NCBI GenBank assembly: GCA_044226015.1
Contig: JBGAHS010000005.1
Location: 640,001-704,000 of the forward strand
DNA: 64,000 nucleotides
Origin: Candidatus Obscuribacteraceae bacterium
GTDB lineage: Bacteria; Cyanobacteriota; Vampirovibrionia; Obscuribacterales; Obscuribacteraceae
Direction: 5' to 3'
Positions within the stretch are counted from its first letter, which is position 1. Each line of letters starts with the position of its first letter. Position numbers and translations under genes: made by a program. This document shows, in pieces, positions 7,884 to 59,802 of this stretch. The notes beneath the pieces are model-generated. The model did not search any database, was not told where the DNA came from, and saw only the letters and a program-made list of their open reading frames with translations.

Positions 7884-8335
7884 CGCAAGGAAATATTTTT
7901 CTAGCGCCGAGAGATTATTTTATAAAGCCGGATAATTTTCTTCAGGAATAACCGTACTGAGGTACTTCTATTTCACAAACATGTTGCAATATCATTATGC
8001 GGAGCCGACACCGGAAGCAGCGTAAAAGACGATATTCAGATGATGAAAGACGGCGCCGAAGCTCTGCTACAAGCCCCGATTGTTGCGGCTAATGGCATTT
8101 ATAGCCTCTTTGCTCCTACCTCGAAGAGACATCGATAATCTCCTCATTTAAGTTTGGTTGCTCGATGCGCCGTGTTTATTCACGGCGCATCCTGGTTTTT
8201 CCAGGACAATGTCCCTGATTGTGATATTGCGGTGAAGACCCGCCGGGACGCTTTTACTGACATCTTCACTCTGCTATATTTTAGGCGAGTTGGCTTGTTA
8301 ACTCAGGAACTTTGCTCTGCTGGGCAAGAGGAAGA

Positions 8336-11300
8336 ATGTCTTTAGGACCTGATTCAATTATTGCCTCTCGCTATAAGCTGCTTCACAAGCTAGGTGAAGG
8401 CGGATTCGCCATTGTCTTTAAGGCGCAAGATCTTGAGTTGGGGCGCACTGTAGCGATCAAATTCCTGAAGGCTGACGGGCAAGATTCTGAAAGTCTTGAA
8501 CGCTTCTTGCGCGAAGCAAGGTTGATTGCTCGTCTAAGTCATCCTAATGTTGTTTCAGTTTATGCAATCGACGTTCTAGAAAACGAGAACATGCCATACA
8601 TCGTAATGGAATTTCTCGATGGAGAAAGCCTCGCGAGTCGAGTTAGCCGCCTTGGACCGTTCTTTGATGGCGAGTGCATGAAATTGTGCCTTGCGCTTTG
8701 TGACGGCTTGAATCAATTGCACGAAAACAACATCCTTCACCGTGATTTGAGTTCAAACAACATCTTTCTGTGCAAGTTAGCAGCGGACGATTCTTTCGAT
8801 CCCAAAATCATAGATTTAGGCTTGTCGAAGGTTCTCGCAGATAATTCTTCCGTTGCCGATAAAAAGCTAACAGCCACAGGTCTTTTAATCGGCAATCCTG
8901 CATTTATGAGCCCCGAACAAGCTCGTGCAGAGGCTCTGGATAAGCGAAGTGACATCTATTCTCTGGGCTGCGTTTTTTACACAGCTGTGTATGGGCGTGC
9001 ACCTTTTGAGGCGGATACTCCCGTTGCGTTGCTTTATAAGCATCAAAATGAAGAGCCAAGTTTTCCTGTACTTAAATGGAGGGACCAAAAGGCTGCAACG
9101 CGAGTCATAAACACTTTGCGAATCGCAATGCAAAAATCTGCTAGTAATCGCTTTCAGTCATGCACAGAATTCGCAGCTGCCTTGCGGGGAGAATCACGGC
9201 TCCCTTCTAAAAATAAAAGCAACCTTGCCTGGAGATTAGCAGCGCTTTCTGGCGTTCTTGTGGTCGGGTTTCTTTCTATGTACGTCTTCTCGATTAAGAA
9301 GAAATCAGCTGAGCTTCCGCAGCCTGCTGGTCATAAGATTTCGCGGAAATCCAGTCTATCGCTGAGCATGCGCAAGCCCGAGTCTTTTTTTGAACTGCTT
9401 GATGTGGTTGAAGATTTCGTCAGGCAGAAGCATCCCAAGGAAGCTCTAGAACTTTTGGATTCATTCAAAGGCAATCTTAACGCTAGAGAAAAACAATTGC
9501 TCAACATGCGGAAGTTGAGTCTTTCTGCAGCTCTCGGTATGAAACATGAGGAAGATCGCCTGGCGGCGAAACTGTATTCTGACCCTACGGTAATTGAAAA
9601 TCATTCAGTTTTGATTTCGCTGATTGATTACTATGTTACCCGAGACCCGTCTAAGTGTCTTGAACTTTGTAAACTCTGGCAGAAGAAGAACCCAGGGGAA
9701 CGCGACTTTATAGTTGAACTTTGCAATGTACGTGCCTTAGTTTTAACGCGCAAATTCTCTGAGGCTGAAAAACTTTTTCCCTCGTTTGATTCGTTCGGAA
9801 TCTCCCAGAGCCCTGACCCTGTGAATGTTGTTTCTCAACTTGAACAAATAAAGCTGGTTGCAAGAATTGGAATGAATCAAAGTATTGATGTTGTTAAAGC
9901 TTGCGATGCGCTCACTGACGTACTTCCTCGAAGAAGGATATCTGACAGGTATCATAATTATATTGAGGTTGCTGATCTGTTAGAAAATGCTGGGTTAATC
10001 GAGCCTGCAGCCAAACTTTGGTTTGCTGCTGCGCACGGTTGCAAGAAGTCAGATCTTGACAAATCTGTTTCTTGCTTCTATAGAATTTGTTCCGGTCCAT
10101 TTTATAGAGATAATCCTGAATTGGTGATTGAATCTGCCAAGGAGTTACTTGCTAGCAGGCATCCTCATGTAAACACTTTTGAGATTCGTCATGTCCTGTT
10201 CGAGATGTACATCGTGCTGAACAAAATGGATGAAGCAAAACGTGTTGCAATGGAAAGCTACGAAACTTTTGAGAATACTTATTCAAGTAAGTCTCAATGG
10301 ATAGCTGAAGATTTGAAAGGGCTATTAACTTGCGAGACTGATGTGTGGCTTATTTCTATGAGCCAAAGAGCTAATGAAGATTGCCGACGCGTATGCCATC
10401 GGGTCTTGGAACTCGTTAAAGGGCGCAAAGAAGCACCGATTGTTACGGCTGCAACATTCTGTTTTCTTGCTCATGATGCAGAAGCTGTATGCGATCACGC
10501 AGCATTGATACGTTATTCAAAAATTGCTGCTGACGATCTTGAGAACATCAGTCAGCCTCAGCTGTCAGAAACCTTTGCTAAATTGCTTTCACCATTTTTG
10601 ACAATGTGTGCAAATCTTCCTCCTCGCGACGCGGTTTACTGTCTCGATAAAATTCAACGTGCCTATAAAAGAGCATACCCGGCTCGTTCGCAGCCTCTAG
10701 CATTACTTGCCTTGCTCTCTACAGCGTATTCAGCGATGCCATCCTCCGAATCGGTAATAAAAATTTTTCCAGATTTCATGAATTCTCTAGAAGAGTATGA
10801 TTTTGCCAACTCTAATGAGCTTCCTGTTGATATGCTTTCCTTAATCAGGTTCTTTTCTAATACCATAGATTCTGCTGAGATTAAGAGTGCGGTTTCTAAA
10901 ATCGGAAGCAAGAATCCTTCTGCAGAAAATCTTGCAGTCCGTTCCCTCGCACTTTCTGAATATTTTCTGGATAGAAGACAGTCAGCAGAGTTCGCTCAAA
11001 GTTTCACCACCTTCCGCGCGCAACTTTTTGATTTGAAGAAATGGAATAAATACGCTTACGAAATTTTGAGAAGAGATGCAATAATTCTGTCTTTGAGATC
11101 TGGAGAAAAGTCGGCTCCGGCGCTTATAAGTCAGCTGGTTTCTGACATCAACGAAAGAGGGCGTATCCAACTCTTTGTTGAGTTATCAGGTTATTTTGAG
11201 CGTTTTCGAGATTACGGTATCTGGGCAAATTTTCTTCGGCAAAATGAGGCTCTTCTCAAGGACTCAACGAATTATAATGTCTCTACTCTCATTCGAGTTG

Positions 11301-11644
11301 AGGGAGATTGCTTTCATAGTTGTGGCGACAACGTTCAGTCTGAACAAGTGTTTGCTGCGGCATTGGCTGATTATCTTGCTAGAAAACACTTAACCGAAGC
11401 TGATGTAGGGAATGATTTAGATCTGGCGCTCCTTTATTGGGGAACTGTTAGGGCTAAAATGGCATTAGGCAAAAATGACATACCTTTGCGGGTGTTCAAA
11501 ACTTTGGCACCAGCCTTGAGTAAATTCAAGTTTGCACAGAAAATAGGACTCAAGAAGTTCGTCGATTTCTGGCAGGCTGCTGCAAAAAATGGCAACCCAG
11601 GTGATCTTAAAGAGGTCGAGGATTTCAGGCGTATTATGCTCTAG
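8336..11644 (+). CDS. Hanks-type Ser/Thr protein kinase with TM helix and helical/TPR-like C-terminal region
   Basis: GEGGFAIV, VAIK, HRDLSSNN, DLG, MSPEQ, SDIYSLG; ATG 8336 follows GAGG; TM at about residue 300. Confidence 0.9.
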   Translation: MSLGPDSIIASRYKLLHKLGEGGFAIVFKAQDLELGRTVAIKFLKADGQDSESLERFLREARLIARLSHPNVVSVYAIDVLENENMPYIVMEFLDGESLASRVSRLGPFFDGECMKLCLALCDGLNQLHENNILHRDLSSNNIFLCKLAADDSFDPKIIDLGLSKVLADNSSVADKKLTATGLLIGNPAFMSPEQARAEALDKRSDIYSLGCVFYTAVYGRAPFEADTPVALLYKHQNEEPSFPVLKWRDQKAATRVINTLRIAMQKSASNRFQSCTEFAAALRGESRLPSKNKSNLAWRLAALSGVLVVGFLSMYVFSIKKKSAELPQPAGHKISRKSSLSLSMRKPESFFELLDVVEDFVRQKHPKEALELLDSFKGNLNAREKQLLNMRKLSLSAALGMKHEEDRLAAKLYSDPTVIENHSVLISLIDYYVTRDPSKCLELCKLWQKKNPGERDFIVELCNVRALVLTRKFSEAEKLFPSFDSFGISQSPDPVNVVSQLEQIKLVARIGMNQSIDVVKACDALTDVLPRRRISDRYHNYIEVADLLENAGLIEPAAKLWFAAAHGCKKSDLDKSVSCFYRICSGPFYRDNPELVIESAKELLASRHPHVNTFEIRHVLFEMYIVLNKMDEAKRVAMESYETFENTYSSKSQWIAEDLKGLLTCETDVWLISMSQRANEDCRRVCHRVLELVKGRKEAPIVTAATFCFLAHDAEAVCDHAALIRYSKIAADDLENISQPQLSETFAKLLSPFLTMCANLPPRDAVYCLDKIQRAYKRAYPARSQPLALLALLSTAYSAMPSSESVIKIFPDFMNSLEEYDFANSNELPVDMLSLIRFFSNTIDSAEIKSAVSKIGSKNPSAENLAVRSLALSEYFLDRRQSAEFAQSFTTFRAQLFDLKKWNKYAYEILRRDAIILSLRSGEKSAPALISQLVSDINERGRIQLFVELSGYFERFRDYGIWANFLRQNEALLKDSTNYNVSTLIRVEGDCFHSCGDNVQSEQVFAAALADYLARKHLTEADVGNDLDLALLYWGTVRAKMALGKNDIPLRVFKTLAPALSKFKFAQKIGLKKFVDFWQAAAKNGNPGDLKEVEDFRRIML

Positions 11645-11745
11645 GTTCGGGGTTTCTTGCGTGTACTGCGAGCGAAAGCGCAAATGATTACTATATTTAT
11701 GGGCTTATCTTGATATCTAAAGAGCAACTTCTCAGGTAGACTAAA

Positions 11746-14700
11746 GTGATGATGTTGCTGGGACCAGATGCAATTATTGCCTCACGCTACAAGCTTCTGC
11801 AAAAGCTTGGCGAGGGTGGGTTTGCTATTGTCTACAAGGCTCAAGATCTTGATCTTGGGCGCACTGTAGCGATAAAGTTCCTGAAAGCCGAAGGGCATGA
11901 CTCTGAGAATATGCAGCGGTTCTTGCGTGAAGCAAGGCTGATTGCTAGTGTAAGCCATCCCAATGTAGTTTCGGTTTATGCAATCGACGTTCTCGAGAAC
12001 GAGAACATGCCTTACATCGTGATGGAATATCTTGACGGAGAGAGTCTTGCGAGTCGAGTTAGCAGGCTCGGTGCGCTTTCTGCCGATGAATGTAATAAGC
12101 TTTTTTTTCAGCTGTGTGACGGTTTGAATCAACTTCATGAGAATAACATCCTTCATAGAGACATCAGTTCCAACAATGTGTTCTTATGCAACGTATCTAA
12201 TGGTGAGCCTTTTGTGCCTAAGATTATCGACTTGGGTTTGTCGAAGGCTCTGGTGAATAGTTCGTCTAATACTGATAAGAAGCTGACTGCAACCGGACTC
12301 TTGATTGGCAACCCGTCCTTCATGAGTCCAGAGCAGGCAAGAGCCGAGGCGCTCGACAAGCGAAGTGATATCTATTCGCTTGCTTGTGTTTTCTACACTG
12401 CCGTGTATGGGAGTCCTCCGTTTGATGCCGACACTCCTGTGGCTTTACTCTACAAACATCAGAATCAAGAAGCTCGTTTCCCCCCGTTAAAGTGGCGTGA
12501 CCAGCAGGCTGCGAACAGAGTAATTGACTCATTAAGGGTCGCGATGAATAAGGATGCAAATGCTCGCTTTCAATCTTGCCCTGAGTTTGCTGCTGCATTG
12601 AGTGGAGATGCGCCCTTGCCTGTGCGTTCGGCTCCTGCCTCGAATCGGCTTGCGATAACCGTTGTTCTTTTGTCTGGACTCATGGTACTTGCTCTCCTTC
12701 CTGCCGTTTATTTCACAAGAAAAAAAAGTGCTGAACCAGTTTTAGGATTCCACAAAGTAAGTCAAAAACGCTCTAATTTGTCTCTCCGGATGAGGAAGCC
12801 GAGTTCCTTCCTTGATTTGCTGGAAATTGCTGGAGATTTTGCAGAGCAAGGGCATGAAAAAGAAGCGCTCGACCTATTGAACTCGTTCACAAATGCATTC
12901 AGTCTTTCGCCCGGCGAAAAACAGATTCTGAATATGCGAAAGCTGTCTTTGTTTGCGGCACTGGGAATGCAGAAGCAGGCTGATGCCACAGAGGAATTGC
13001 TTTATTCAGATCCCACAATTACAAAGAACAGTTTGCTCACCGCCAATTTCGTTGATTATATGGTTTCGAAGGATCCTGCGAAGTGCATTGTCATTTGTGA
13101 GCACTGGCAAAAGAATAATCCTGATAATAGAAGTCTACGAATTGAGCTTGCGAAGTTGCGCGCCTTAGTTTTCTGCCGGAAATATGCCGAAGCAAAAAAA
13201 CTTATTCCGTCTTTTGATTACTTTGACCTTAAGCTAAGCGCGACGAATGAAACTGCTTTGAGCGAGCTTGAAGAGCTAATACTTGTAATAAAGTCTGGCT
13301 TGGGTGAGAAAGTAGATCTGGTAAAGGGCTGCAAAGAAATCACAGAAGCGAATCCACGGCGGCGCTTGCATGATGAACATAAAACCTATCTTGAGGTTGC
13401 AAACCTTTGTGAATTGTCTGGTTCGAGGAAAGAGGCGGTGACTCTTTTGATGACCGCTGCTCGCAAGTGCGAGACGACGAATCCTGAAGCTGCAAAAGAG
13501 TGCTTTAGAAAGGTGTTTTCTGAAAAAGATTTTTGGAATGAGTTTCCGTCTGAAGTCATTGAAGCCGCCAACGGAGCTTTGAAGTTGGGGCTAACGCCAG
13601 TTGAAGCTTATCCCGTGCGAAACGTGCTTATTCACGTTTATTGCAATCTCAAAAAATACGACTTAGCAAAGAAATTCGCGCTGGAGAATTATGATTGGTT
13701 TTTGCAAGCTTATGGAAATAAGCCCGAATGGAGTGCAGTTGAATGTCGGTATTGCGCAGATATCATGGGGGGGCTGACCAGAGCTTTTGATGGAGACCAA
13801 AATAGAGATGAGTTAATCAGGCTGTCAGAGCAGGGGTTGGTGCTGTTTCAAAAGCATAAAGAGGCGGCATCAGCCCATGTCGAGGTACTGCTGAATTTAG
13901 TTAGGAGTGTTCAGTGGGTGGATCATGAGAGGATGGGTTCTTTTTCTAGAAGAGCTGCTGATCAGCTTATACTTATTTCTCCAGATGAACTTCCCAATTC
14001 TCTTAGTCGTAAGATGCCCTTGATAGAATCGTTGTTTTCTGCAATTCCGCCTGTTGACCAGATCTACTGCTTTGACCATCTTCTTACGGCTTATTCACAA
14101 GCTTTTCCAGGGCGGGCAAAGCCACTCAAATCCCTATCTTCGTTAGTCTATTCGTATTCCGTGTTGGGGCAAATGGATAATTTGCGGAAGCTATATCCTG
14201 TCATTTCCAAGTCTCTAATCGAAACAGATTTCAGTAAAGAACAAAGTGATATTACTTCTGTGATATTTATGGTTCGAACCATTGAGAATTCCCCAAAATT
14301 TGCCGATTTCGAAAGTGTTCTTGCCAAAACTGGCAGCGCTAAAAACTCGCCTGTGAATCGGGCTGTCGCGTCTTTAGTTCTGGCTGATTTTTATCTTGAT
14401 GTGGGAAGAACCACCGATTTTGAAAACACCTTTTCCAAGTTTCGCTTGCAGCTGAAGGAATTGAGTGTCCGTGATCCAGTCTATGCTCAGCTCAGAAAAT
14501 GCTCTTTATTACAAGCTCTACGAACTCAAAAGCAAGCGTTTAGCGATTTCGTAAACCAGAAATTGGCTGAAGTAAAAGGAGGAGATCGACTTAGACTGTT
14601 TTTGGAATTCTCCGAGTATTTTCAACACTTTTCGGATTTGGCTGTGTGCGTGAAATTTCTCGATGAGCACAAAAATGAGCTGAGTGATAATTCCAATCCT

Positions 14701-15078
14701 GATGTTTTGGTTTTAAATCGCGTCAGGGGTGATTGCTACTATTTGCTCAAAGAATTCGCTCTTTCCGAATCTCTTTACCGCTCTGTTTTAGCAGATTACG
14801 AAAAACGCAAGAGTCTTACTGGCGCTGACGCTGTAAACGATAAAAATCTGGTTTTGCTCGAATGGGGGCTGTTCGATGCATTGAAAGCCCAGAAAAAATT
14901 TGATGAGTCTTTAGAGCTATACAAAAATCTTGGTGCTGGACTCGTGAAGTTTAGAATTAGAGAGCCAAAGGTGCTGAGGGAATTTGCCGCAATTTGGCAA
15001 GCTGCTGCAACTAAGTTTGGCGACGAAAATGATTTGAAGGAAATTGAGAGATTTAAAAATGCAATCGCTGGAAATTGA
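11746..15078 (+). CDS. Hanks-type Ser/Thr protein kinase, tandem paralog of 8336..11644
   Basis: Same motifs (HRDISSNN, DLG); collinear with the upstream gene. Confidence 0.9.
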   Translation: MMMLLGPDAIIASRYKLLQKLGEGGFAIVYKAQDLDLGRTVAIKFLKAEGHDSENMQRFLREARLIASVSHPNVVSVYAIDVLENENMPYIVMEYLDGESLASRVSRLGALSADECNKLFFQLCDGLNQLHENNILHRDISSNNVFLCNVSNGEPFVPKIIDLGLSKALVNSSSNTDKKLTATGLLIGNPSFMSPEQARAEALDKRSDIYSLACVFYTAVYGSPPFDADTPVALLYKHQNQEARFPPLKWRDQQAANRVIDSLRVAMNKDANARFQSCPEFAAALSGDAPLPVRSAPASNRLAITVVLLSGLMVLALLPAVYFTRKKSAEPVLGFHKVSQKRSNLSLRMRKPSSFLDLLEIAGDFAEQGHEKEALDLLNSFTNAFSLSPGEKQILNMRKLSLFAALGMQKQADATEELLYSDPTITKNSLLTANFVDYMVSKDPAKCIVICEHWQKNNPDNRSLRIELAKLRALVFCRKYAEAKKLIPSFDYFDLKLSATNETALSELEELILVIKSGLGEKVDLVKGCKEITEANPRRRLHDEHKTYLEVANLCELSGSRKEAVTLLMTAARKCETTNPEAAKECFRKVFSEKDFWNEFPSEVIEAANGALKLGLTPVEAYPVRNVLIHVYCNLKKYDLAKKFALENYDWFLQAYGNKPEWSAVECRYCADIMGGLTRAFDGDQNRDELIRLSEQGLVLFQKHKEAASAHVEVLLNLVRSVQWVDHERMGSFSRRAADQLILISPDELPNSLSRKMPLIESLFSAIPPVDQIYCFDHLLTAYSQAFPGRAKPLKSLSSLVYSYSVLGQMDNLRKLYPVISKSLIETDFSKEQSDITSVIFMVRTIENSPKFADFESVLAKTGSAKNSPVNRAVASLVLADFYLDVGRTTDFENTFSKFRLQLKELSVRDPVYAQLRKCSLLQALRTQKQAFSDFVNQKLAEVKGGDRLRLFLEFSEYFQHFSDLAVCVKFLDEHKNELSDNSNPDVLVLNRVRGDCYYLLKEFALSESLYRSVLADYEKRKSLTGADAVNDKNLVLLEWGLFDALKAQKKFDESLELYKNLGAGLVKFRIREPKVLREFAAIWQAAATKFGDENDLKEIERFKNAIAGN

Positions 15079-15225
15079 AGATTTGACCAGGCAGAGTGTT
15101 AGATTCGTTGACTAAAGCAGCTTTCCTTGAACCTGTGGGCAGGCGAAAACCGAGGGCAAAGTCCAAAGCTGTGGACTTCAGGACATGACTTAGAACCTCG
15201 TAAAACTGGTGAAGCATTAGCCCAG

Positions 15226-15528
15226 CTAAAACCAGTCCATTTGAGTCTCCTTAGGAGCTATAGGATTATTTTCTGGAACTTCTATTCCAATGAATTTAAT
15301 GTTACCTGGCTCAAGTGGACCACTGATGGCGAGGAGCCATTCGTGCATTGCGGTGTTTGGCGGGCATACGAGAGTACTATGATAAAAAACGTCTTTTTTG
15401 CTACTGATGAGCTTGACCCTGAGGCTGCTGTCTTCCAACATCATCACAGTGCTTACATCTCCGACAGGTGGAAACTTGCTGGGGTCATTAAAAGGGAAAT
15501 TGCTGGGTTCGTTTAACCGATCTGTCAT
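15226..15528 (-). CDS. Putative immunity protein, paralog 5
   Basis: Shares ND..KFP...D...V.......L.V....S....YH....CP..T..H.W.....GP...G with its four neighbours. Confidence 0.75.
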   Translation of the reverse strand: MTDRLNEPSNFPFNDPSKFPPVGDVSTVMMLEDSSLRVKLISSKKDVFYHSTLVCPPNTAMHEWLLAISGPLEPGNIKFIGIEVPENNPIAPKETQMDWF

Positions 15529-15540
15529 TCGTTAGGTTTT

Positions 15541-15831
15541 TCAAAAAAATTCTGATAGCTCATTTGGTGCATCGAGGTCTATTTCTTGGTCTTGGAATTC
15601 CTCATACCCGAACAGGTGAAGTTGCCCTTTTCCCATTGGCCCAGTCATTGAAATAATCCAATCATGCATTTTTGTGTCCCTGGGGCAGTTAATCATGCCG
15701 TGATAATGCATTTCATTATCGCTTCGAAGAACGCGAATTTGCAAACTGCCATCGCCTTCCATGATAACGGAGACGAGATCCTCTTTTCTGGGAAATGTTC
15801 TTGAGTCGTTGTATTTTTTCAAATCCGTCAT
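15541..15831 (-). CDS. Putative immunity protein, paralog 4
   Basis: FPRKEDLVSVIME...MHYHGMINCP...MHDWI. Confidence 0.75.
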   Translation of the reverse strand: MTDLKKYNDSRTFPRKEDLVSVIMEGDGSLQIRVLRSDNEMHYHGMINCPRDTKMHDWIISMTGPMGKGQLHLFGYEEFQDQEIDLDAPNELSEFF

Positions 15832-15867
15832 TGTCGTCTTGCTTTCGTCTAGGGATTTCTGGTTTAC

Positions 15868-16146
15868 CTAGAATTCGTTAGCTGCGTTTTCATCGTACTC
15901 GCCCTCTTTCAATCCATCTGCTAAGCATAATTGCATTACCCCTGGAATTATAGGACCTGTTATCTCTAGCAACCAAGAATGCAATAAGGTGTTTGGTGGG
16001 CATGTGATCATGCCGTGATAATGCATTTTGCTATCGCTCCGTAGAACGCGTACTTCCAAAGTAGTATCCTGTAACATAGTTATTGATACCAGATCTTCAC
16101 GCCTTGGAAATCTTTTTGGATCGTTGAAAATTTCTTGATCTACCAT
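15868..16146 (-). CDS. Putative immunity protein, paralog 3 (alternative start 16170)
   Basis: FPRREDLVS...MHYHGMITCPP...LHSWLL; ATG 16146 overlaps the end of the orphan fragment. Confidence 0.75.
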   Translation of the reverse strand: MVDQEIFNDPKRFPRREDLVSITMLQDTTLEVRVLRSDSKMHYHGMITCPPNTLLHSWLLEITGPIIPGVMQLCLADGLKEGEYDENAANEF

Positions 16147-16289
16147 AATTTTGATTGAATTGCCTCCCATAAGTTATTTCGTTTTGACCAATTCATCGAT
16201 TCCAACGTTGATTCGATTTCTCCGAAGTGTTGTGTCAGCTTTCGAATAGTCTCGGGTCTCCTATTAGTACCTCCATTTGCGATAATCGC
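16140..16289 (-). pseudogene. Orphan toxin C-terminal fragment 2
   Basis: AIIANGGTNRRPETIRKLTQHFGEIESTLESMNWSKRNNLWEAIQSKLW* aligns with toxin AISHGGTCRDPRVVEKLIETFGEINEHMIGIDWAKPESNRWEQIRSWFRR*. Confidence 0.8.
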
Positions 16290-16384
16290 TGTTTTGAACT
16301 GGGTTGCAAATCTTCATTTGCATCTTGCTTTTGTTGCTTATTTCTATTGATCAACTAAGAGTCTTTCGATCTGAACGCTGCAAT

Positions 16385-16672
16385 TCAGTCAACGAGCCAT
16401 TTTTTTGTGGCTTCTTCATCATATTCTCCCTCTGCTAGAGGATCTACGTTGCATAATCTCATGTTGCCTGGATTCATGGGACCTGTTATTTCGAGTAACC
16501 ACGAGTGCATCAAAGTACCTGGGGGACAGGTGAGCATTCCGTGATAGTGCATTTTGCTGTCACTTCGGAGGATACGTACCTGAAGAGTGTGATCGGTCTC
16601 CATAATGACGGAGACCAGATCCTCCTTTCTGGGAAATTTACTTTTGTCGTTGTAATCGTTATTTCCTTCCAT
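16385..16672 (-). CDS. Putative immunity protein, paralog 2
   Basis: FPRKEDLVSVIME...MHYHGMLTCPP...MHSWLL. Confidence 0.75.
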   Translation of the reverse strand: MEGNNDYNDKSKFPRKEDLVSVIMETDHTLQVRILRSDSKMHYHGMLTCPPGTLMHSWLLEITGPMNPGNMRLCNVDPLAEGEYDEEATKKWLVD

Positions 16673-16844
16673 AGAAACTCTTCATTACCTCCCAAAAAGT
16701 TTCGCGCCGTTTCTATCCGTCTCTTTCCAACGACTCATTGATACTGCCGAAAGTCTCCATAAGTTTCTTCTTTGTGAAATCCATACGGTTGGTTCCGCCA
16801 TGAGCCATTGCGTAGAGATCTGCCACTACTTCCTTGGGTCCTCT
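16659..16844 (-). pseudogene. Orphan toxin C-terminal fragment 1
   Basis: RGPKEVVADLYAMAHGGTNRMDFTKKKLMETFGSINESLERDG*KRRETFWEVMKSFYGRK* vs toxin RGPLEVLADCYAISHGGT...; internal TAG (16713-16715) at the conserved Trp position. Confidence 0.85.
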
Positions 16845-16899
16845 AACTAGATTCGTATTCAGCGAACTCCCCTGGGTTTTCTGGAACTGCTGAAATTAC

Positions 16900-17178
16900 T
16901 CAGAACCATCTACGCGGTGGCGGATCCGGGTTGAGGTCCTTCTTGTCTGGAGGAACTACACCTATGAGTTTGGATTCGCCTGGTCTCAAAGGACCGCTCA
17001 AGCTTAACAGCCATGTATGCATCGCGGTGTCAGGCGGACAGACTAGAGTACCGTGATAGCTCAGGTGCTTTTGGCTGCTCATAATTTTTACTTCCAAACT
17101 GTTATCAGCGCGTCGAGTGACGATTTTGACATCAGATTCGAGTGGAAACTTTGTTGGATCGTTAAACCGTTCTGTCAT
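16900..17178 (-). CDS. Putative cognate immunity protein, paralog 1
   Basis: ATGA overlap with the toxin stop codon; family motif YHG.L.CPP.T.MH.WLL. Confidence 0.8.
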   Translation of the reverse strand: MTERFNDPTKFPLESDVKIVTRRADNSLEVKIMSSQKHLSYHGTLVCPPDTAMHTWLLSLSGPLRPGESKLIGVVPPDKKDLNPDPPPRRWF

Positions 17179-19379
17179 CTCCTAAACCAGCTCCTTATCT
17201 GCTCCCATCTATTAGACTCGGGTTTTGCCCAGTCTATACCGATCATGTGCTCGTTTATTTCCCCGAATGTTTCAATCAGTTTCTCTACCACTCTGGGATC
17301 CCTGCAGGTTCCTCCATGAGAAATTGCATAGCAGTCTGCAAGTACTTCAAGCGGACCACGGTCCGGTGACATATACTCGTAAAACTGGTGAAGCAATCTC
17401 AATCGTGTTCTTGACTCTGTCATAATAGATTCGTCGATTATACCTGCTTCAGCGACCACTTTTTCTGCCGTAGACTCGAAAGCGTTCATGTAGCTGAACC
17501 ATGACTCGGCTCGATTTTTATCGTAGATTTTCTGGATTTGTTTGGTCCAGCCATAAGTATGGTCTATAGCATGTCCTATCTCATGGCGCACCACGCCCTC
17601 TGTAATGCCGCTTGCCTCAAATCGTTTCGTTGAGTTTTTAAATGCCTGCTGAGGAATGACAACCATTTTTCTAGTGGTATCTGTGCATCCTAGTGTGTTT
17701 TCTAAGTCTCCAACGTAGTCCATCACATCTGTAATTGTTCTAGGTGCGAAGATTTTGTAACCTGCTTTTCGAATGTCATTGATGTGCTCAGCGGGCAGAG
17801 TTAGTAGCGTTTCCTTGACTCTAGCAACGTGTTCAACCGAAGCTTGGCTGCTGACGTTATTTTCCATCATTTTGTCGATAGATTTTACAGCTTCAGGTGA
17901 GTGCCGTGCCTCAATTTTGTTGTGGTTCCTAAAAATGTTGCCTTCGCTTTGATAATCAAAGTCAAACTTATTCTTCGCAAAAAGTAGCTCAGGCTGCTGC
18001 TTTCGACTGAAGACGGCTTGCTTTTCGCCATTTACAAGCGCTTCTTCTGCATGCTCAGCTTTCTGCGCAGCCTTTAGAAATGCACCTGTCTTTTCTGTAG
18101 CAAGTGCTAATTCTTCTACTTTGTTGCCAGTCGATAAGATGCGTCCGAGATGTTTGCTTGTGTTTGCAATAGCTGCACCGGCAGTTTCAATTTCGCCAAT
18201 TCCACCTGATGTGAACATCAGCGAGAGCTTTCCAGCTTGTTTTCCGCGCTCATAGTGGCTCGACTTGCTGTAGCTATCAGACCAAGATACGACACCGTCG
18301 GCGATGGCTTTGCCTGCTTGACCGGCGTCATTCATTATGCCTTTGCCATCCCCTTTTCCAAGATGAACAGCGTAGTAATCGAATGCTGTTTTTACAGACT
18401 CTTTGGCGCCTGCGGTAAGGTCATTGACCAAGTTATGCTTGCTCAAGTAGTCGACGCTTTGCACCACTGTTTCTTTGACCGCTTCGCCAAATCCATCCTT
18501 GAAGCCTTTACCCATTTCAAGGACGTCATTGAAGTTTTGCACTCCCATTGTCCTTCCATGGTAGTCTCGCGGGAGGGCTTCCGGTCCCAGATTCTCTGGC
18601 GTAGGTGGAATATGCATAGACTGTTTAGATATTCGCTCGAACTGTGCGCGAGCTGCTTCTACTGGATTTTGTCTTCCTGCTGGCGAGTGCTTTTCGATGA
18701 GCGATTGCTGTTCAGCCGCAGCATGTTGTTCTGTCTTTTCTGTATGCGAGTTCTTTTCTGCAGGTGTGTTCTGTTCATTCGCAGCATGTTTTTCTGTTGG
18801 AGCGTGCTTTTTCTCAGGTGTTCGCTTTTCTGGGGTTGATTGTTTCTCAGAAGAGTGATGCTTTTCCGCAGGCGAGTTCTTTTCTGTAGGTGTATGTTTC
18901 TCAGAAGCTGTATGTTTCTCAGAAGCTGTATGTTTCTCAGAAGCTGTTTGTTTCTCAGCAGCTGGATGCTTCTCGTTGGATGCAGCTGTTTGATGGGGGG
19001 TCTGCTCACTCGACCTTAATTTTGGCTGCTGTTCTTTTGGGTGTTCCTTCGCACCTGCTGCATCTTTTGCAGAAGCGCCGTGGTTCGAATCGAGGTGCGA
19101 GTTACCTCTACCTGTCACGCCTGTGTTGTGTCCCGTGGATTGCTCAAAGTGCGCTGCTGATTCCTTCTTAGACGCAATGACTCGACCCTTGTCTGTGATG
19201 CCGAAACTCTGCCCGCCACCGCCGTCAGGGCTCACAGTGAAACGCCGATTTGGGTTTGCCTTTAATGCTTGTCGATGAGCATAAACGGAGTTCTCAGGGC
19301 TGTCCTTTGCGAGTCTTTCGCTTGCTCGCTCAGCCTTCTGAGAAGTATTATCTGTCTTGTGCTCTGCTTTATCCGACAT
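17175..19379 (-). CDS. Putative polymorphic toxin with C-terminal anthrax-lethal-factor/PPEP-like zinc metalloprotease
   Basis: LPAEHINDIRKAGYKIF...ITDV, HEIGHAIDH, downstream EVLADCYA (third ligand); 6-aa repeat linker; Gly/Ala-rich central region. Confidence 0.75.
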   Translation of the reverse strand: MSDKAEHKTDNTSQKAERASERLAKDSPENSVYAHRQALKANPNRRFTVSPDGGGGQSFGITDKGRVIASKKESAAHFEQSTGHNTGVTGRGNSHLDSNHGASAKDAAGAKEHPKEQQPKLRSSEQTPHQTAASNEKHPAAEKQTASEKHTASEKHTASEKHTPTEKNSPAEKHHSSEKQSTPEKRTPEKKHAPTEKHAANEQNTPAEKNSHTEKTEQHAAAEQQSLIEKHSPAGRQNPVEAARAQFERISKQSMHIPPTPENLGPEALPRDYHGRTMGVQNFNDVLEMGKGFKDGFGEAVKETVVQSVDYLSKHNLVNDLTAGAKESVKTAFDYYAVHLGKGDGKGIMNDAGQAGKAIADGVVSWSDSYSKSSHYERGKQAGKLSLMFTSGGIGEIETAGAAIANTSKHLGRILSTGNKVEELALATEKTGAFLKAAQKAEHAEEALVNGEKQAVFSRKQQPELLFAKNKFDFDYQSEGNIFRNHNKIEARHSPEAVKSIDKMMENNVSSQASVEHVARVKETLLTLPAEHINDIRKAGYKIFAPRTITDVMDYVGDLENTLGCTDTTRKMVVIPQQAFKNSTKRFEASGITEGVVRHEIGHAIDHTYGWTKQIQKIYDKNRAESWFSYMNAFESTAEKVVAEAGIIDESIMTESRTRLRLLHQFYEYMSPDRGPLEVLADCYAISHGGTCRDPRVVEKLIETFGEINEHMIGIDWAKPESNRWEQIRSWFRR
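18670..18985 (-). repeat. Coding 18-bp/6-aa repeat (xxEKHx), about 15 degenerate units; three perfect copies at 18891-18944
   Basis: TGTATGTTTCTCAGAAGC x3; protein ASEKHT ASEKHT ASEKHT PTEKNS PAEKHH... Confidence 0.9.
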
Positions 19380-19613
19380 AAGACTACTATACCTCTTGAG
19401 GCAAGGCTTGTCGGCAGTTGTGATTGCTGATTCAGGAATTTAAATCTTGCGTGCTAGCAACCTTCTCCGCAATCCAATTTTTGCCTGATTCCTCTGCCTC
19501 GGCATCCTTGTTGCATGCATGCATCCCCGCAAAGCAAAGTCGATGTTATTGGTGGAAATCCCCCAAAGATTGTCTTTCGGTATAATGACTAAAGATGTTG
19601 CCGAGGTGATCAA

Positions 19614-20983
19614 ATGAAGCCGCATAGCGAGAACTCTGTTTCATCAAAGAGCACTGAGCGTGCATCCGAGAGAAGTGATTCGTCTCTTGAGAAATCCTCA
19701 GCGAATTTGCAGGCTGAAGCGTCACCTGCAATGAGTGAATTGAACGCGATGATTATCTTGAAGAGGCAGGAGAATAAGGCTCAGAGAAATGAGCGCCTGA
19801 GTAGTCAGTTTCGGCAAACCGGAGATGCTAAGGTTGGGGTTATAACTCGTCAGTTTGGCTGTAGCATTGAATTATCTGACAAGCGAAAGGGCGCAGTTGT
19901 TGTACCTGGAAGGTCAACCGAGGATCTTGCTCGATTGCAAGAATTGAAGTCAGCTGCAAATACCGATGCGCTTATTGGTGAGGGAGGGTCTATCCTGATT
20001 CCCGATAAGACTAGTCCGCGCAATGGAGATGATTCGAATGCAACGCCACAGTTGTATGATGAAGCTTCTGGTGAGATTCACATTGGAAAGAGGACATACT
20101 CTCGCGATCAAATAGTTGCTGATGCTTCTCAGAGCACCAAGGGTGATGCCATAGCAGTTAAACATCCTTTCGTGCTAAATCCTGGTGATAGGTCATGTGA
20201 TTATCCGGACGGTGTCGGTTATATCATGAGAAATGACGGGACTTTGATAAATTCAAGAATGGAAAATATCTTGGTACTGCAATCGATGAATCAACCAACA
20301 AGCCATATAATGCTAATGGTTCTCAGATTTCTTTTCCAGGAACTAGTGATGTGCACAATTTTGGCAAATCGAAAGTCCGCTTCATCAATCCATCATTGCT
20401 TCAGGGTGGAGTGCAGGAAGATGTGAAACTTGAGAGACCTAAAGAGAAGCTCGACGCTCAATTGGACGAGCAAGCTGCTAAAAGCCGATTAGAGAAGACT
20501 CAGATCAGCGAAAAGGATGCACTAAAAGACAAGGCGCAGACCAATGATAAGCCTGATTCGTTCTATTCTTTGGTTCTTAAGGCTAACTATTCCTATGAAA
20601 CACAGTCAGGCAGCATGACTGGGCGACGCGATGGTGGTGATTACATAAACATTAATATTCGAGATAACATGGTAGTGAATGGAAGCCCGATCAATGATGG
20701 TTTATCCCATCGAGGTGTTTTCCCAATTGATGTTGAAGGAGCCTACTTTAAGTGGGTTGATGCTACAGTGCAGGTGAATTCTGGTGGAACAGGCTCAATA
20801 GAGATTCATGGACTTAGTCCCAACACTGGTGATAAGCCTCCGGGACCTGACCGTGTCTGGTATTCTCCTTCTGAGACCTCATTTACGTTGCACCAGAGGA
20901 CAGAGAAGCTGCATGCAGATGTCCACAATTTTTCGCAACTGCCTAAAGAGGTTAAGCGGGAAACTGTAATGAAGAGAAAATGA
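19614..20983 (+). pseudogene. Single hypothetical gene split by a frameshift (ORFs 19614..20426 and 20351..20983)
   Basis: The second frame is open from 20237 (DFDKFKNGKYLGTAIDES...), overlapping the first by about 190 nt; the tail of frame 1 looks out-of-frame. Confidence 0.6.
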
Positions 20984-23900: not shown

Positions 23901-25109
23901 ATGAATAGGATGTCCATCATTTTTATTCACGGCGTTGCAAATCGAGATTCAGATCAAAAATTGCAAAAGACGCGTTTGATTCGAAAACATATGTTTGAGG
24001 AACTGGTTGTAAAACCCGCATCTCAGAAGGTCGCTTCATTTAAATTTGTAGCACCCTATTGGGGCGATCTGGGAGTGTCAGTCCCCGGCAACTTCAAGTC
24101 ACTTCCCAGAGCTACTTACAGGGAGTCTTTGTCTGGCACCAATGAAGACACCAATTCCGGTTTGGATTACCTAATTGCGCTCTATCCTCAACATTCAAAC
24201 GTGAACAAAGGAGAGCGACAATCTCTAGGGACTGCAGCGAGTGGAACGACTGATCAGGTTCTCGTAATTCCTGCTCAGGAGAATCCCAAAGAGTTGATTT
24301 GGGCATTCACTTCAGAATTGATCGAAGATGCATTCTCCTTACATACGGATCCTACTGCGGTAGTTGACGCCATTTTAAAGAAAGCAAAATCGCAATGCGA
24401 TTCAGAGGAATTTTTGGACAGCTTAAGAAAATGCCAGAGCAATAAGGACGTTATCGAAAAACTAGAAGGCTCGTACAATGCCCCTCCTCCTGTTGGAGGA
24501 GGAGGACGACAATCTTTAGGTCCAGCCAAAGATAAGGCTACCCAGCTGATTGATTCAAGCAAAAAAGTCTTAGAAAAAATCGGGCATCTCGCCGCACGCG
24601 GGCTTTCCATTCCTTTTGTAAACATAGCGAGAGATCAGGCGACTACAACGAGGAGATTGATTTTTGTCGGTGACGCAATCAAATATGGAACCTCTGCTCG
24701 CAGAGATGTAATTGATCGCGTTCTTGAAGCAGTTAAACCTGAAATTGGTGCCGACAACCCGCTGATATTGGTTACTCACTCCTTCGGAGGTATAATCGGC
24801 TACGAACTTCTCAAAGAATTAGAGAAGGACTCTGTTGCGCTCTGGGTTACTGTTGGTTCCCCTCTATGTTTTTTCATTGAGCTTGGGCTATTTGACGATC
24901 CATTGCAATGCAGAAAGCCTGAGTCCGTGAAGCGATGGCTGAATGTTTATGATCCTCTCGATCCGATCAGCAGCATGGCTGAACCGATTTTTCCAGGACA
25001 GGTCACCGACATATTGTTAAAAGAGGGGCGTTTTCTGAATTCCGCACATGGAGATTACTTTGTTTATCCATCATTCTACGAAATAATTACAAGCGAATTG
25101 GAGAGCTAA
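23901..25109 (+). CDS. Alpha/beta-fold hydrolase (lipase-like)
   Basis: IFIHGV, THSFGG nucleophile elbow, VTVGSPL, WLNVYDPLDP, AHGDY (Ser-Asp-His triad). Confidence 0.8.
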   Translation: MNRMSIIFIHGVANRDSDQKLQKTRLIRKHMFEELVVKPASQKVASFKFVAPYWGDLGVSVPGNFKSLPRATYRESLSGTNEDTNSGLDYLIALYPQHSNVNKGERQSLGTAASGTTDQVLVIPAQENPKELIWAFTSELIEDAFSLHTDPTAVVDAILKKAKSQCDSEEFLDSLRKCQSNKDVIEKLEGSYNAPPPVGGGGRQSLGPAKDKATQLIDSSKKVLEKIGHLAARGLSIPFVNIARDQATTTRRLIFVGDAIKYGTSARRDVIDRVLEAVKPEIGADNPLILVTHSFGGIIGYELLKELEKDSVALWVTVGSPLCFFIELGLFDDPLQCRKPESVKRWLNVYDPLDPISSMAEPIFPGQVTDILLKEGRFLNSAHGDYFVYPSFYEIITSELES

Positions 25110-25113
25110 TTAC

Positions 25114-26283
25114 GTGCTTTGGCTTGATCGGAAGAACACTGTGGGAGACAACTCACCTTCAACGCATGCTTTTGTAATCGGTGTCTCGCACTACGACATA
25201 GTTGAGGAAAATCCAAGCAAACATCGGACGTTTGGTATCAATCATTTGGACTGTGCGGCATTGTCGGCTCTTCAATTCGCCAGATGGCTGCGAGATGACT
25301 ATAATAATGCCGCCGCTCCGCTCTCGACTATCAGAATGTTGCTTTCTCCCTCAGTATTGGAAAGAGGAGAAGATCCCGATCTCAATAACTGGAACGACGA
25401 GCATTCTCCAAGCACCGAATCGGTTACTACGGAACTCGAGCTGTGGAGAAATGATTGCCGTAGAAACCTAGACAATGTTGCAATTTTTTATGTCTGCGGA
25501 CATGGTGGAATGTTCAACAGAGGAAAACGATTACTACTCTTGAAAGATTTCGCAAAGCATGAGCAGGTACTGAATTTTTCAATAAACGTAGATAAGGTTA
25601 TTAGTGGATTTGCCGAGAATGATATAGCGCAGACCCAATTCTATTTTGTCGATTGCTGCTCAGTTCGCTTGGGAAACGGAGATGATATAGATTTGGGAGA
25701 TGGAGTTGGATTAACCAGTGCCTGGGGACCCAGTCCAAGGGCTTCTTCCACTTACTTTGCATCAACATGTGAAGAAGAAGCTTATGGTGATCCTGGTGAA
25801 GCTACTGTGTTCATGCAAGCATTGCTTCGATCGGTTTCGGGAGAAGGTGTCGTACCGCATTTAAACGCAGCTGGAAATTGGACGGTGACTGCTCAAAGCT
25901 TGGGCACCACTTTGACTCAACTAGTTGCCAGCCTCGAACCAAAGCAACGAATCACCACTCATTTTATCGGCAATCCGAATTTTCATGTCATACCAGGATC
26001 GCCTAAAGTATCCAGGAAATTACACGTTTCGCCAGAGGAAGGTGCTGAAAAATCTGATGTGATCATCAGGGACAATCAGGCTACAACAAGAATGAAGGTT
26101 GATCGCCCCTTTGCACCCAGTCCGCGGGAAATAGCATTGGAAGCTGGGATTTATCTTGTTGATGTGGTCCCCAGTGATAAATACAATCCGAGAACTAACA
26201 TTGGCTTCGATCTTATTCCAAGTCTTGGAGCTCAGTTGAATCAATTCGATATTGAATTGGAGTTGCAGGTCAATGAAAAATAG
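25114..26283 (+). CDS. Caspase-family (peptidase C14-like) protease
   Basis: THAFVIGVSHY first strand, FYVCGHG (His), FVDCC (Cys). Confidence 0.85.
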   Translation: MLWLDRKNTVGDNSPSTHAFVIGVSHYDIVEENPSKHRTFGINHLDCAALSALQFARWLRDDYNNAAAPLSTIRMLLSPSVLERGEDPDLNNWNDEHSPSTESVTTELELWRNDCRRNLDNVAIFYVCGHGGMFNRGKRLLLLKDFAKHEQVLNFSINVDKVISGFAENDIAQTQFYFVDCCSVRLGNGDDIDLGDGVGLTSAWGPSPRASSTYFASTCEEEAYGDPGEATVFMQALLRSVSGEGVVPHLNAAGNWTVTAQSLGTTLTQLVASLEPKQRITTHFIGNPNFHVIPGSPKVSRKLHVSPEEGAEKSDVIIRDNQATTRMKVDRPFAPSPREIALEAGIYLVDVVPSDKYNPRTNIGFDLIPSLGAQLNQFDIELELQVNEK

Positions 26284-41685: not shown

Positions 41686-42750
41686 ATGGCGGAAAAGCGC
41701 TATCAAGTCTTTATTAGCAGTACTTATGTAGATCTTGTGGAGGAGCGCAAAGAAGTAATACAAGCGTTGCTTGAGCTCGACTGTATGCCTTCTGGGATGG
41801 AATTGTTTCCTGCAGCAAATGAAAGCCAATGGAACTTGATAAAGCAAGTCATTGATGAGTGCGATTATTACGTGCTGATTATCGGCGGGCGATACGGCAG
41901 CATCTCTGAGCCTGACGGAATTAGCTACACTGAAAAGGAATATGACTATGCAGTAACCATAGGCAAACCAACAATTGCATTCTTGCACAAGTCTCCCGGA
42001 AAAATTGCTTCAGAGAAAACTGAATCAAAAGACAAAGGGAAAGAACTTCTTGCGGCGTTTAGAAAAAAGGTCGAGCAAAAACTATGTAAGCACTGGGATT
42101 CCGCTGCAGAACTAGGATCTGTTGTTAGTAGAAGTTTAGTTCAACTAATGAGATCTACACCAGCTGTGGGCTGGGTACGCGCCAATGAGCTTGCTAATGA
42201 AGAAGCAACAAAAGAAATCTTGGAGCTAAGGAAACAAGTAGACTCACTTACGAAACAACTGGAAACTTCAAAGACAACAGCTCCAAAAGGGGTTGAAGAC
42301 CTAGCGCAAGGAGATGACGAACACACGTTTGAAGTCGCTTTTCTTAGCAAAAAGAAAGTAGGCGGCTCAATTAGCGAATGGTTTTGGATTGACGTCAAAG
42401 CGACATGGAACGAATTATTTGCTTATGTAGCCCCGACAATGATCCATGAGACTACAGAAGAGGCTTTTGAAATTGCCGTGAATAATTTCTTTTATAATTT
42501 CGCAAGTGATCAAGCCGCGAAGCAAGCAGAGGAGCTTCTGCTGTCGGGGCCAGAGAAGATTGAATTAGATGATGGCGAGATTCAAACAGTAAAGGTGCAA
42601 TTGCTTGCGCTTGGGCTAATTAAAAAGAGCGAGAAGCAACGCAGTGTGAAGGACAAAGACGGCTATTTGGAATTAACTCCGTTTGGATATCAAACTATGA
42701 CTCGGTTACGTGCGGTCAAGAAGAAAACCCCTCGCGTACATGGACTCTAG
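41686..42750 (+). CDS. DUF4062 domain protein with coiled coil
   Basis: [38 protein letters not shown] upstream of ATG 41686. Confidence 0.9.
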   Translation: MAEKRYQVFISSTYVDLVEERKEVIQALLELDCMPSGMELFPAANESQWNLIKQVIDECDYYVLIIGGRYGSISEPDGISYTEKEYDYAVTIGKPTIAFLHKSPGKIASEKTESKDKGKELLAAFRKKVEQKLCKHWDSAAELGSVVSRSLVQLMRSTPAVGWVRANELANEEATKEILELRKQVDSLTKQLETSKTTAPKGVEDLAQGDDEHTFEVAFLSKKKVGGSISEWFWIDVKATWNELFAYVAPTMIHETTEEAFEIAVNNFFYNFASDQAAKQAEELLLSGPEKIELDDGEIQTVKVQLLALGLIKKSEKQRSVKDKDGYLELTPFGYQTMTRLRAVKKKTPRVHGL

Positions 42751-59244: not shown

Positions 59245-59802
59245 CTAGTGTCGATGCATGATTGTAATCAGTACTACTGCAGCGATTCCGCAAGCAATGT
59301 ATATGCCCTGGAAAGTGCAAGCGACGTGCCTCTCTAATTCGGCTAATGAATTCAGGTCTGATCTGTGCGTATGAGCCTGAGCTGTTATCGGCGCTGCCAA
59401 CAAGTACTTTTCCATTCCTTGAAGTACGTGTGTTTGCCTTCGGTGAAGTTTGCCATAGGCCTGCAAGAGTCCAGCCCAATTTCGATCGAGCAAATATCCG
59501 ACCAGCGAAAGTGCCACAGTCATTATCATCAAGTTCGTTACTCGATGCTCGTGCAAGAATACTTCGAATGATTCTTTGAAAATAAATCCGATACCTGCTA
59601 GAAGAAATGTATTCAGGGAAAGGAAGAATCCGTTGATAGCCTGTCGGCGTGCTGCAAAAGAGTCACTAGATTGAACGATGGATTTGTACTGGTCGTAAAG
59701 CAGCTTTAGCTGATCGGAATCGTAGTTAGTTCCTGACGGGAAAAGGACTTTTTCGAGTTCCTCATTTTCTTGCTGAATGTCTGATTTGTCTTGATTTGAC
59801 AT
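59245..59802 (-). CDS. 3-TM protein, RipA-like/SLATT-like membrane family
   Basis: YDQYK......D....RRQ..N.FF..LNT and W......Y..L.........ME patterns. Confidence 0.6.
   Translation of the reverse strand: MSNQDKSDIQQENEELEKVLFPSGTNYDSDQLKLLYDQYKSIVQSSDSFAARRQAINGFFLSLNTFLLAGIGFIFKESFEVFLHEHRVTNLMIMTVALSLVGYLLDRNWAGLLQAYGKLHRRQTHVLQGMEKYLLAAPITAQAHTHRSDLNSLAELERHVACTFQGIYIACGIAAVVLITIMHRH

Follow-up and report, generated by a model that had tools for sequence, protein, structure and literature searches.

Does a long bacterial gene that ends in a zinc-protease domain and is followed by a row of five small genes encode an interbacterial toxin with its immunity proteins, and if so, how do its parts come to vary? 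This question is raised by a stretch of 64,000 nucleotides (nt), hereafter the window (G000:C8:640001-704000), from the genome of a Candidatus Obscuribacteraceae bacterium (G000; 8.19 Mb, 92%-complete). An earlier note, made from the letters alone, had described the locus as a polymorphic toxin system and possibly an undescribed class of interbacterial protease toxin. Based on comparisons of sequences, strains and predicted folds, we think it likely that the locus is a polymorphic toxin-immunity system with a constant carrier, an exchangeable zinc-protease tip and allele-specific inhibitor genes.

The locus consists of six open reading frames (ORFs) on the minus strand of the window, encoding a toxin of 734 amino acids (aa; 17175-19379) and then small proteins of 92, 95, 100, 96 and 100 aa, the last ending at 15226. 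The reading frame and its modular homologs divide the toxin into a conserved hydrophilic leader of about 70 aa (residues 1-73; 19161-19379), which alignments show to be common to toxins with other tips; a low-complexity linker of short EKH/T/A/S repeats (about residues 130-235; 18675-18992; DNA repeat family D1); a helical pre-toxin domain with a Gly/Ala-rich, mildly hydrophobic end (residues 271-409; 18153-18569), delimited by alignment; and a predicted zinc metallopeptidase tip resembling lethal factor (LF) and PPEP (17175-17897). The reading frame and the C-terminal protease motifs are as the earlier note had given them, with HEIGH at residues 599-603 and EVLAD at residue 678, and the translational coupling that it proposed is seen in an ATGA overlap between the toxin stop and the start of small gene 1 (16900-17178), the predicted cognate immunity gene. 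Small genes 2 (16385-16672), 3 (15868-16170; the ATG at 16146 may be its true start), 4 (15541-15831) and 5 (15226-15528) are orphan paralogs in the window. The note had also placed decayed tips between the small genes; all five genes are indeed paralogs, but remnants precede only genes 2 and 3. By tblastn, the first (16844-16665) is a 3' remnant of a divergent tip allele, with 48% identity over 61 aa (E 1.5e-9) and one internal stop, and the second (16283-16152) has 42% identity over 45 aa (E 1.7e-5). Both run into the start of the following small gene. No remnant was found by tblastn before genes 4 and 5, where the spacers are only 36 and 12 nt. The locus therefore holds orphan tip/immunity cassettes in the form of two remnants and four orphan genes.

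Evidence of how such cassettes arise comes from other strains. Seven sequencing runs (X1-X7) hold parts of the stretch and were compared with it. X1 agrees with the window and may be its source; X3 is an independent metagenome (study P2) that is 95-99% alike to the window. On a 5711-nt contig of X3 the toxin gene is the same up to position 17863 (about residue 506) and then continues into 677 other letters, in place of the roughly 685 letters of the window tip. Behind this other tip stand gene 5 with a 20-nt repeat, 26 tip-like letters, and the end of the window tip together with gene 1; genes 3 and 4, 280 other letters and a kinase gene follow, and the contig leaves out remnant 1, gene 2 and remnant 2. 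Translated by hand, the other tip ends in IWEKWRSFRK with a stop codon that overlaps the ATG of gene 5, and the window tip ends in RWEQIRSWFRR. Since the X3 tip end is homologous and directly ATGA-coupled to gene 5, this gene is cognate in X3 and an orphan in the window; gene 1 stands behind a remnant of the window tip in X3 and is therefore an orphan there. The other loose end in X3, also translated by hand, reads MTDLDKFNDEKKF, which is the start of a sixth paralog. This arrangement was seen on one assembled contig at a depth of 13.6, in which 30 letters of the other tip were read. The comparison of X3 with the window gives direct evidence that tips and immunity genes are exchanged. The carrier forms one module and the tip another, strains exchange the tip and its coupled small gene at about residue 506, and the array grows by displacement, in which small genes stay behind with a remnant of their tip. 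This layout matches the displacement model set out in section 41 of PMC3482391.

The 20-nt repeat is an exact copy of tip sequence 17376-17395 that recurs just behind gene 5 (15197-15216) and marks the start of the window-tip remnant in X3. The sequence occurs only twice in the genome and is likely a recombination scar, with the caveat that exact 20-mers recurring 0.5-3 kb apart are not very rare (89 clusters in 8.2 Mb). No excision joint between the two copies was listed in the related sequencing runs, whose contigs cannot show absence. A step in GC content from the carrier (0.487) to the tip and array (0.443 and 0.436) was not used as evidence, because the flanking kinase genes are likewise at 0.44. 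These kinases, two tandem Ser/Thr kinases of about 1110 aa with a hydrophobic segment and a TPR-like tail, occupy 8312-15078; in X3 the second of them has diverged in its 3' part much more strongly than the toxin carrier has. On the other side, 19614-20983 holds two overlapping ORFs (270 and 210 aa) that are divergent from the toxin and likely represent one frameshifted gene; 19590-20978 is skipped in X3.

If the carrier is a constant module, its parts should be found in front of other toxin domains. We searched for homologs of the N-terminal and central regions and found that they vary both in tip and in downstream gene. The leader is genuine in five of the 107 genomes of the order, all from the window's genus (a sixth match, in G113 at E 8e-4, was dropped as likely false), and in 28 database proteins after removal of P0087, which was also judged a likely false match. 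In G000 a second copy precedes a Toxin-deaminase tip that has an SMI1/KNR4 gene behind it, and in genome G007 the leader is combined with a WHH nuclease tip, again with an SMI1/KNR4 gene after it. Further leader proteins end in deaminase and DUF6932 domains according to Pfam and, by eye only, in restriction-like, RelA/SpoT-like and C39-like domains and a second HExxH type. On contig G006:C26 the leader is followed by a different middle, and tip and small gene are homologous there. One homolog (L017) adjoins an integrase.

The helical domain is more widespread, with 85 matches in 47 of the 107 genomes; neither it nor the leader matches a Pfam or PHROGs family. Among 24 loci examined, it is followed by LF-like tips in 11, by papain/C39-like tips in five (four with weak Pfam support) and by HNH-like tips, classified by eye, in two, one of which precedes a SUKH gene; restriction-like, other peptidase-like and unassigned tips occur as single cases, and three loci are broken or short. 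In genome G030 the domain is combined with a CDI_toxin_EC869_like tip. A constant N-terminal body thus carries variable C-terminal toxin domains, and the downstream gene changes with the tip, SUKH genes following deaminase and HNH tips and the small family following LF-like tips. Together with the strain-level tip change, the occurrence of the leader and the helical domain with several different tips supports the polymorphic toxin reading of the earlier note. G000 itself encodes a second helical-domain/LF-like toxin (598 aa; G000:C2:8170-10333) with a divergent small gene.

What kind of enzyme is the tip? Single-sequence scans of the window proteins against Pfam, NCBIfam and PDB gave no match at cut-off, and a word-indexed protein search with the tip matched none of 606 candidates; the proposed likeness to PPEP-1 and anthrax LF therefore had to be examined with profiles and fold models, and both bear it out. 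A profile of ten tip relatives matches PPEP-2 (6fpc, E 7e-10), PPEP-1 and lethal factor. An AlphaFold model of the tip built from 103 sequences (pLDDT 80.4, pTM 0.80) gave 17 Foldseek matches at E<=0.001, and those listed are PPEP-1/Zmp1 or LF (probability 1.0, TM 0.47-0.52). Residues H599, E600, H603 and E678 are intact in the tip and invariant in the family alignment, and relatives reach or exceed the cut-off of Pfam ATLF, to which the window protein has no match. The model and the profile support assignment of the tip to HExxH/E peptidases of the LF/PPEP fold, and there is a strong likelihood that it is enzymatically active as such. The PRGW stretch, which is the S-loop motif of PPEPs, is absent. 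In PPEP, according to PMC12828418, this loop with a basic residue and Trp/Tyr closes on the substrate; since the motif is gone, the predicted target of the tip is unlike that of PPEP. The tip thus has HExxH, the third Glu and the fold of the LF/PPEP type and departs from PPEP proper in one defining feature.

As a class of toxin domain the tip is not new, because Zhang et al. 2012 (PMC3482391) had already included LF-like metallopeptidase tips among the polymorphic-toxin domains. The earlier suggestion of an undescribed toxin class does not hold for the tip. Of the carrier and the small family, a literature search that left subscription papers mostly uncovered found no prior description, although the small family may appear under another name in the supplement or final part of PMC3482391. 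The LF-like family is strongly expanded in the order, with matches at E<=1e-10 in 98 of 107 genomes. Some of its members have HQxxH instead of HExxH and no small partner (L026 at G000:C9:183794-184867, L024, L158, L160, L171, L174 and L179), and these conserved proteins are likely pseudo-proteases.

We then asked what the small proteins are. The five window proteins have 33-53% identity to gene 1 and share 19 invariant columns; genes 2 and 3 are 66% identical, and a quick-mode tree left the order of the paralogs unresolved. A profile search with the family returned 55 proteins. When one profile was built from the five window proteins and another, separately, from 15 distant members, the two matched with 84.6% probability (E 6.9e-6, 60 columns), which gives moderate support to homology of the two sets. 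No Pfam match, including Imm-SuFu and SUKH, was found for the five window proteins or, at E<=1, for 15 members of the wide family, and a scan of four members against PHROGs gave no match either. In the structural model of the small protein (pLDDT 84.9), three strands lie between a short first helix and a second helix. The model of the 92-aa protein had no Foldseek match at E<=0.001 and a best VIA-align Z of 4.6; this outcome is uninformative and does not establish the fold as new. Atlas gave nothing usable for gene 1, and for P0035 only unnamed clusters below 0.9. The family occurs in 73 of the 107 genomes of the order and also in Myxococcota, Acidobacteriota, Alphaproteobacteria, Actinomycetota and others.

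The genomic neighborhoods of this family connect it to the protease. An LF-like protease is encoded at 11 of 59 wide-family loci and at 16 of 30 Obscuribacterales small-gene loci (three of the 16 seeded the profiles), and all 27 of these proteases lie at most 600 nt upstream of the small gene on the same strand; at one locus a VgrG-ATLF fusion is followed by a small gene and then by PAAR. In the reverse direction, among 30 loci chosen by protease score, of which seven seeded the profile, 16 of 17 ordinary HExxH enzymes have the small partner fused to them or encoded downstream, whereas it accompanies none of seven HQxxH forms and none of six forms with TPR or a signal peptide (two of the six were classed by eye and one was without downstream DNA). 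The small domain is therefore tightly linked to intact, signal-less LF-like proteases. Its placement directly behind such proteases, or fused ahead of them, recurs in several phyla. Additionally, it is fused in front of an LF-like protease in 10 of 149 representatives; the occurrence of such fusions across Obscuribacterales genera suggests that the fused copy is a pro-domain. The S-loop motif of the protease and a V-x-P-W tail of the small protein co-vary: of 42 pairs, 32 have both, five (including the window) have neither, four have the S-loop with V-x-A-W and one has the tail only. Taken together, the small protein likely represents a new family of inhibitors of LF/PPEP-fold proteases, as far as sequence and neighborhood can tell.

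Several further loci show the range of arrangements. Fusions in the order leader, small domain and LF protease were seen at L136, L143, L144, L147, L150, L167, L172 and L027, and in seven of these a free small gene follows. A lone small-family gene lies opposite an HExxH fragment at G000:C6:321335-321679. At L041:6686-9445 (G006:C5), an unrelated 464-aa protein is followed by three small-gene homologs, one of which is fused behind a 170-aa domain; the tip of the 464-aa protein did not match the LF profile in tblastn or phmmer comparisons with the window protein and gave no Pfam match.

A number of observations weigh against this reading of the small protein. In the DNA fetched, no LF-like protease is present at 48 of the 59 loci of the wide family or at 14 of the 30 small-gene loci from Obscuribacterales, and several wide-family members have signal-peptide-like N-termini, so the small domain may have other roles. 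Four of the 11 helical-domain LF-like toxins are without a detected small domain in the locus, as is one locus with an ordinary HExxH enzyme (L155). Fusion in front of the protease also fits a role in targeting or substrate binding. Moreover, the counts overstate independence because the genomes are kin and several loci seeded the profiles.

The best-surviving alternative to an interbacterial toxin is an effector that acts, as lethal factor does, on eukaryotic grazers or hosts such as protists, with the small proteins as chaperones or self-protection. A toxin directed at hosts is known to have the LF fold, section 37 of PMC3482391 describes lineage-specific N-terminal domains on host-directed effectors of Amoebophilus, and the presence of LF-like domains in nearly every genome of the order would fit as well. 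However, keeping orphan genes and exchanging tips between strains pays only against bacteria that use the same tips, and sister toxins have SUKH immunity genes, so that we consider a host-directed role improbable.

Slightly less probable still is a reading in which the small protein, instead of inhibiting the protease tightly, serves it as a substrate, decoy or processing partner. This idea draws on VMSP, which is encoded downstream of PPEP-2 and cut at PLP/PVP (PMC8610288), and on the many wide-family members that end in PVPPWP. The Pro-Pro bond is not kept, however: V-x-P/A-W is found in fused and Obscuribacterales copies, and none of the five paralogs in the window has the motif; a substrate would also not be expected to pile up as orphans once the protease allele is lost. 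We accordingly rejected the notion of a Pro-Pro bait, which fits the wide-family tails and not the window paralogs. The least probable of the three is a toxin-antitoxin or addiction module that acts inside the cell without ever being exported and has a vestigial N-terminus. The missing signal peptide, the lack of a standard delivery marker in G000 and the integrase beside L017 speak for it; against it are a toxin-first gene order, a leader and helical domain conserved across unrelated tips, and the occurrence of this pair of tip and small gene on a VgrG fusion.

The toxin-immunity reading leaves the question of how the toxin would leave the cell. As the earlier note had stated, no known delivery domain or signal peptide is recognizable: the 734-aa protein had no RHS, FHA, VgrG, PAAR, LXG or WXG match in Pfam or NCBIfam, and no signal peptide was detected, the peak 19-aa hydropathy being 0.97 at residue 387. 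VipB, FHIPEP, sheath, WXG100 and the VgrG OB domain were not found in G000, with positive controls, in a search that did not include PAAR or the type I secretion system; no marker of the type VI (T6SS), type III (T3SS) or type VII (T7SS) secretion systems or of extracellular contractile injection systems (eCIS) was thus found in this 92%-complete genome. A search for ShlB was uninformative, its control being silent. G000 has two secretin genes and two VirB4-like loci. One, on contig C10, includes a coupling protein and a Replic_Relax gene; the other (L181; G000:C1:182285-197844) has a VirB4-like gene that is split in the assembly and includes TadE-like genes and large unassigned membrane proteins. 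L181 has the appearance of an unusual hybrid of a type IV secretion system and a pilus. Export through one of the two VirB4-type systems is the best single candidate, on their presence alone, and seems to us rather doubtful: no delivery gene adjoins the toxin, one VirB4 is split in the assembly and the other lies in a conjugation-like locus.

A motif in hydrophilic N-termini of G000 (an acidic N-terminus, an S..L..EA helix and an LP.L.I.D strand) has 10 matches at residues 40-60, against 0-6 in other bins, and this type of N-terminus is a candidate for a lineage-wide export signal. In many signal-less proteins of G000, some of them 2500-5000 aa long, the same helix and strand follow an acidic disordered segment at the N-terminus. 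The idea that the toxin leader is a variant of this motif was not supported, as the profile was driven by composition and only one of 12 leaders, that of the window, scored above all 200 shuffles.

We propose the following mechanism. The leader would route the protein out of the cell without a Sec signal, and the helical domain might aid crossing of the target membrane. The zinc-protease tip would then likely poison neighboring bacteria, and each small gene would likely encode an allele-specific inhibitor of one tip. We expect, with good likelihood, that the three-strand-plus-helix small protein binds to the tip and occludes its cleft, acting in trans here and as a fused pro-domain elsewhere; the orphan genes probably protect against kin with older tips. 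More tentatively, and in our view with less than an even chance, Obscuribacterales could possess a large undescribed class of interbacterial weapons, here taken as proteins with the helical pre-toxin domain (47 of 107 genomes), hydrophilic signal-less leaders and at least six tip chemistries, whose export and entry would lie outside T3SS, T6SS, T7SS, eCIS and the type V secretion system (T5SS); the small domain would then be a new protein inhibitor of LF/PPEP-fold proteases across phyla and, where fused, would act as a pro-domain as well.

With this locus the Obscuribacterales, non-photosynthetic relatives of Cyanobacteria known here from metagenome assemblies, would gain a defined interbacterial conflict system in which a strain-level exchange of tips has been caught in public data. 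The five paralogs and two tip alleles provide a ready matrix for studies of specificity, and a small unannotated family is put forward as a likely natural inhibitor of LF/PPEP-fold proteases. The delivery question is sharpened by toxins whose tips and immunity genes are of textbook type, encoded in a genome in which searches did not detect the usual injection machines.

Elsewhere in the window, a tRNA-Arg(CCT) is followed by an island-like stretch (23585-46006) that possibly includes defence genes. It encodes an alpha/beta hydrolase (23901-25109), a protein with caspase-like His/Cys motifs recognized by eye and without a Pfam match (25114-26283), a 1001-aa TPR protein, an oxidoreductase, integrase-like fragments and two DUF4062 proteins (at 41686 and 43711). 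A member of the octameric membrane protein family (8xMP; Pfam E 1e-17) is encoded at 59245-59802.

How does the locus compare with known systems? In fold and in its HExxH and downstream Glu, the tip is like PPEP-1/Zmp1 and PPEP-2 (Pfam ATLF, PF07737), from which it differs in being only 11-15% identical, in having a helical insertion after HExxH and in missing the S-loop motif that carries K101/W103 in PPEP-1; moreover, PPEPs are secreted stand-alone enzymes that release adhesins. Tox-ALFMPTase, as listed in PMC3482391, is likewise an HExxH LF-type tip at the C-terminus of polymorphic toxins. It is listed there for other phyla, with Imm-SuFu and with delivery through PVC or the type II secretion system, whereas the partner in the window belongs to a non-SuFu family of 70-100 aa and no sheath gene was found in G000. 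The MafB-N, Microscilla-N and APD1/2 domains of section 37 of the same source resemble the leader as narrow-range N-terminal modules that head many tips; MafB-N and APD1/2 follow a signal peptide or lipobox, whereas the leader is hydrophilic from residue 1. Unlike the Rhs, CdiA and MafB toxins, the window toxin has no RHS, FHA, LXG, WXG, MafB-N, PAAR or VgrG domain, no signal peptide and no adjoining trafficking gene. With those systems, as PMC3482391 presents them, it shares the order of toxin and then immunity gene, the constant 5' body, the exchangeable 3' tip and the displaced immunity genes, and the tip and immunity types found with its carrier modules (the BURPS668_1122 deaminase, WHH and EC869-like nucleases and SUKH) are common to both. 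The logic of the system and the class of its tip are therefore known, and what appears to be new is an unnamed carrier and an unnamed partner family that spans several phyla.

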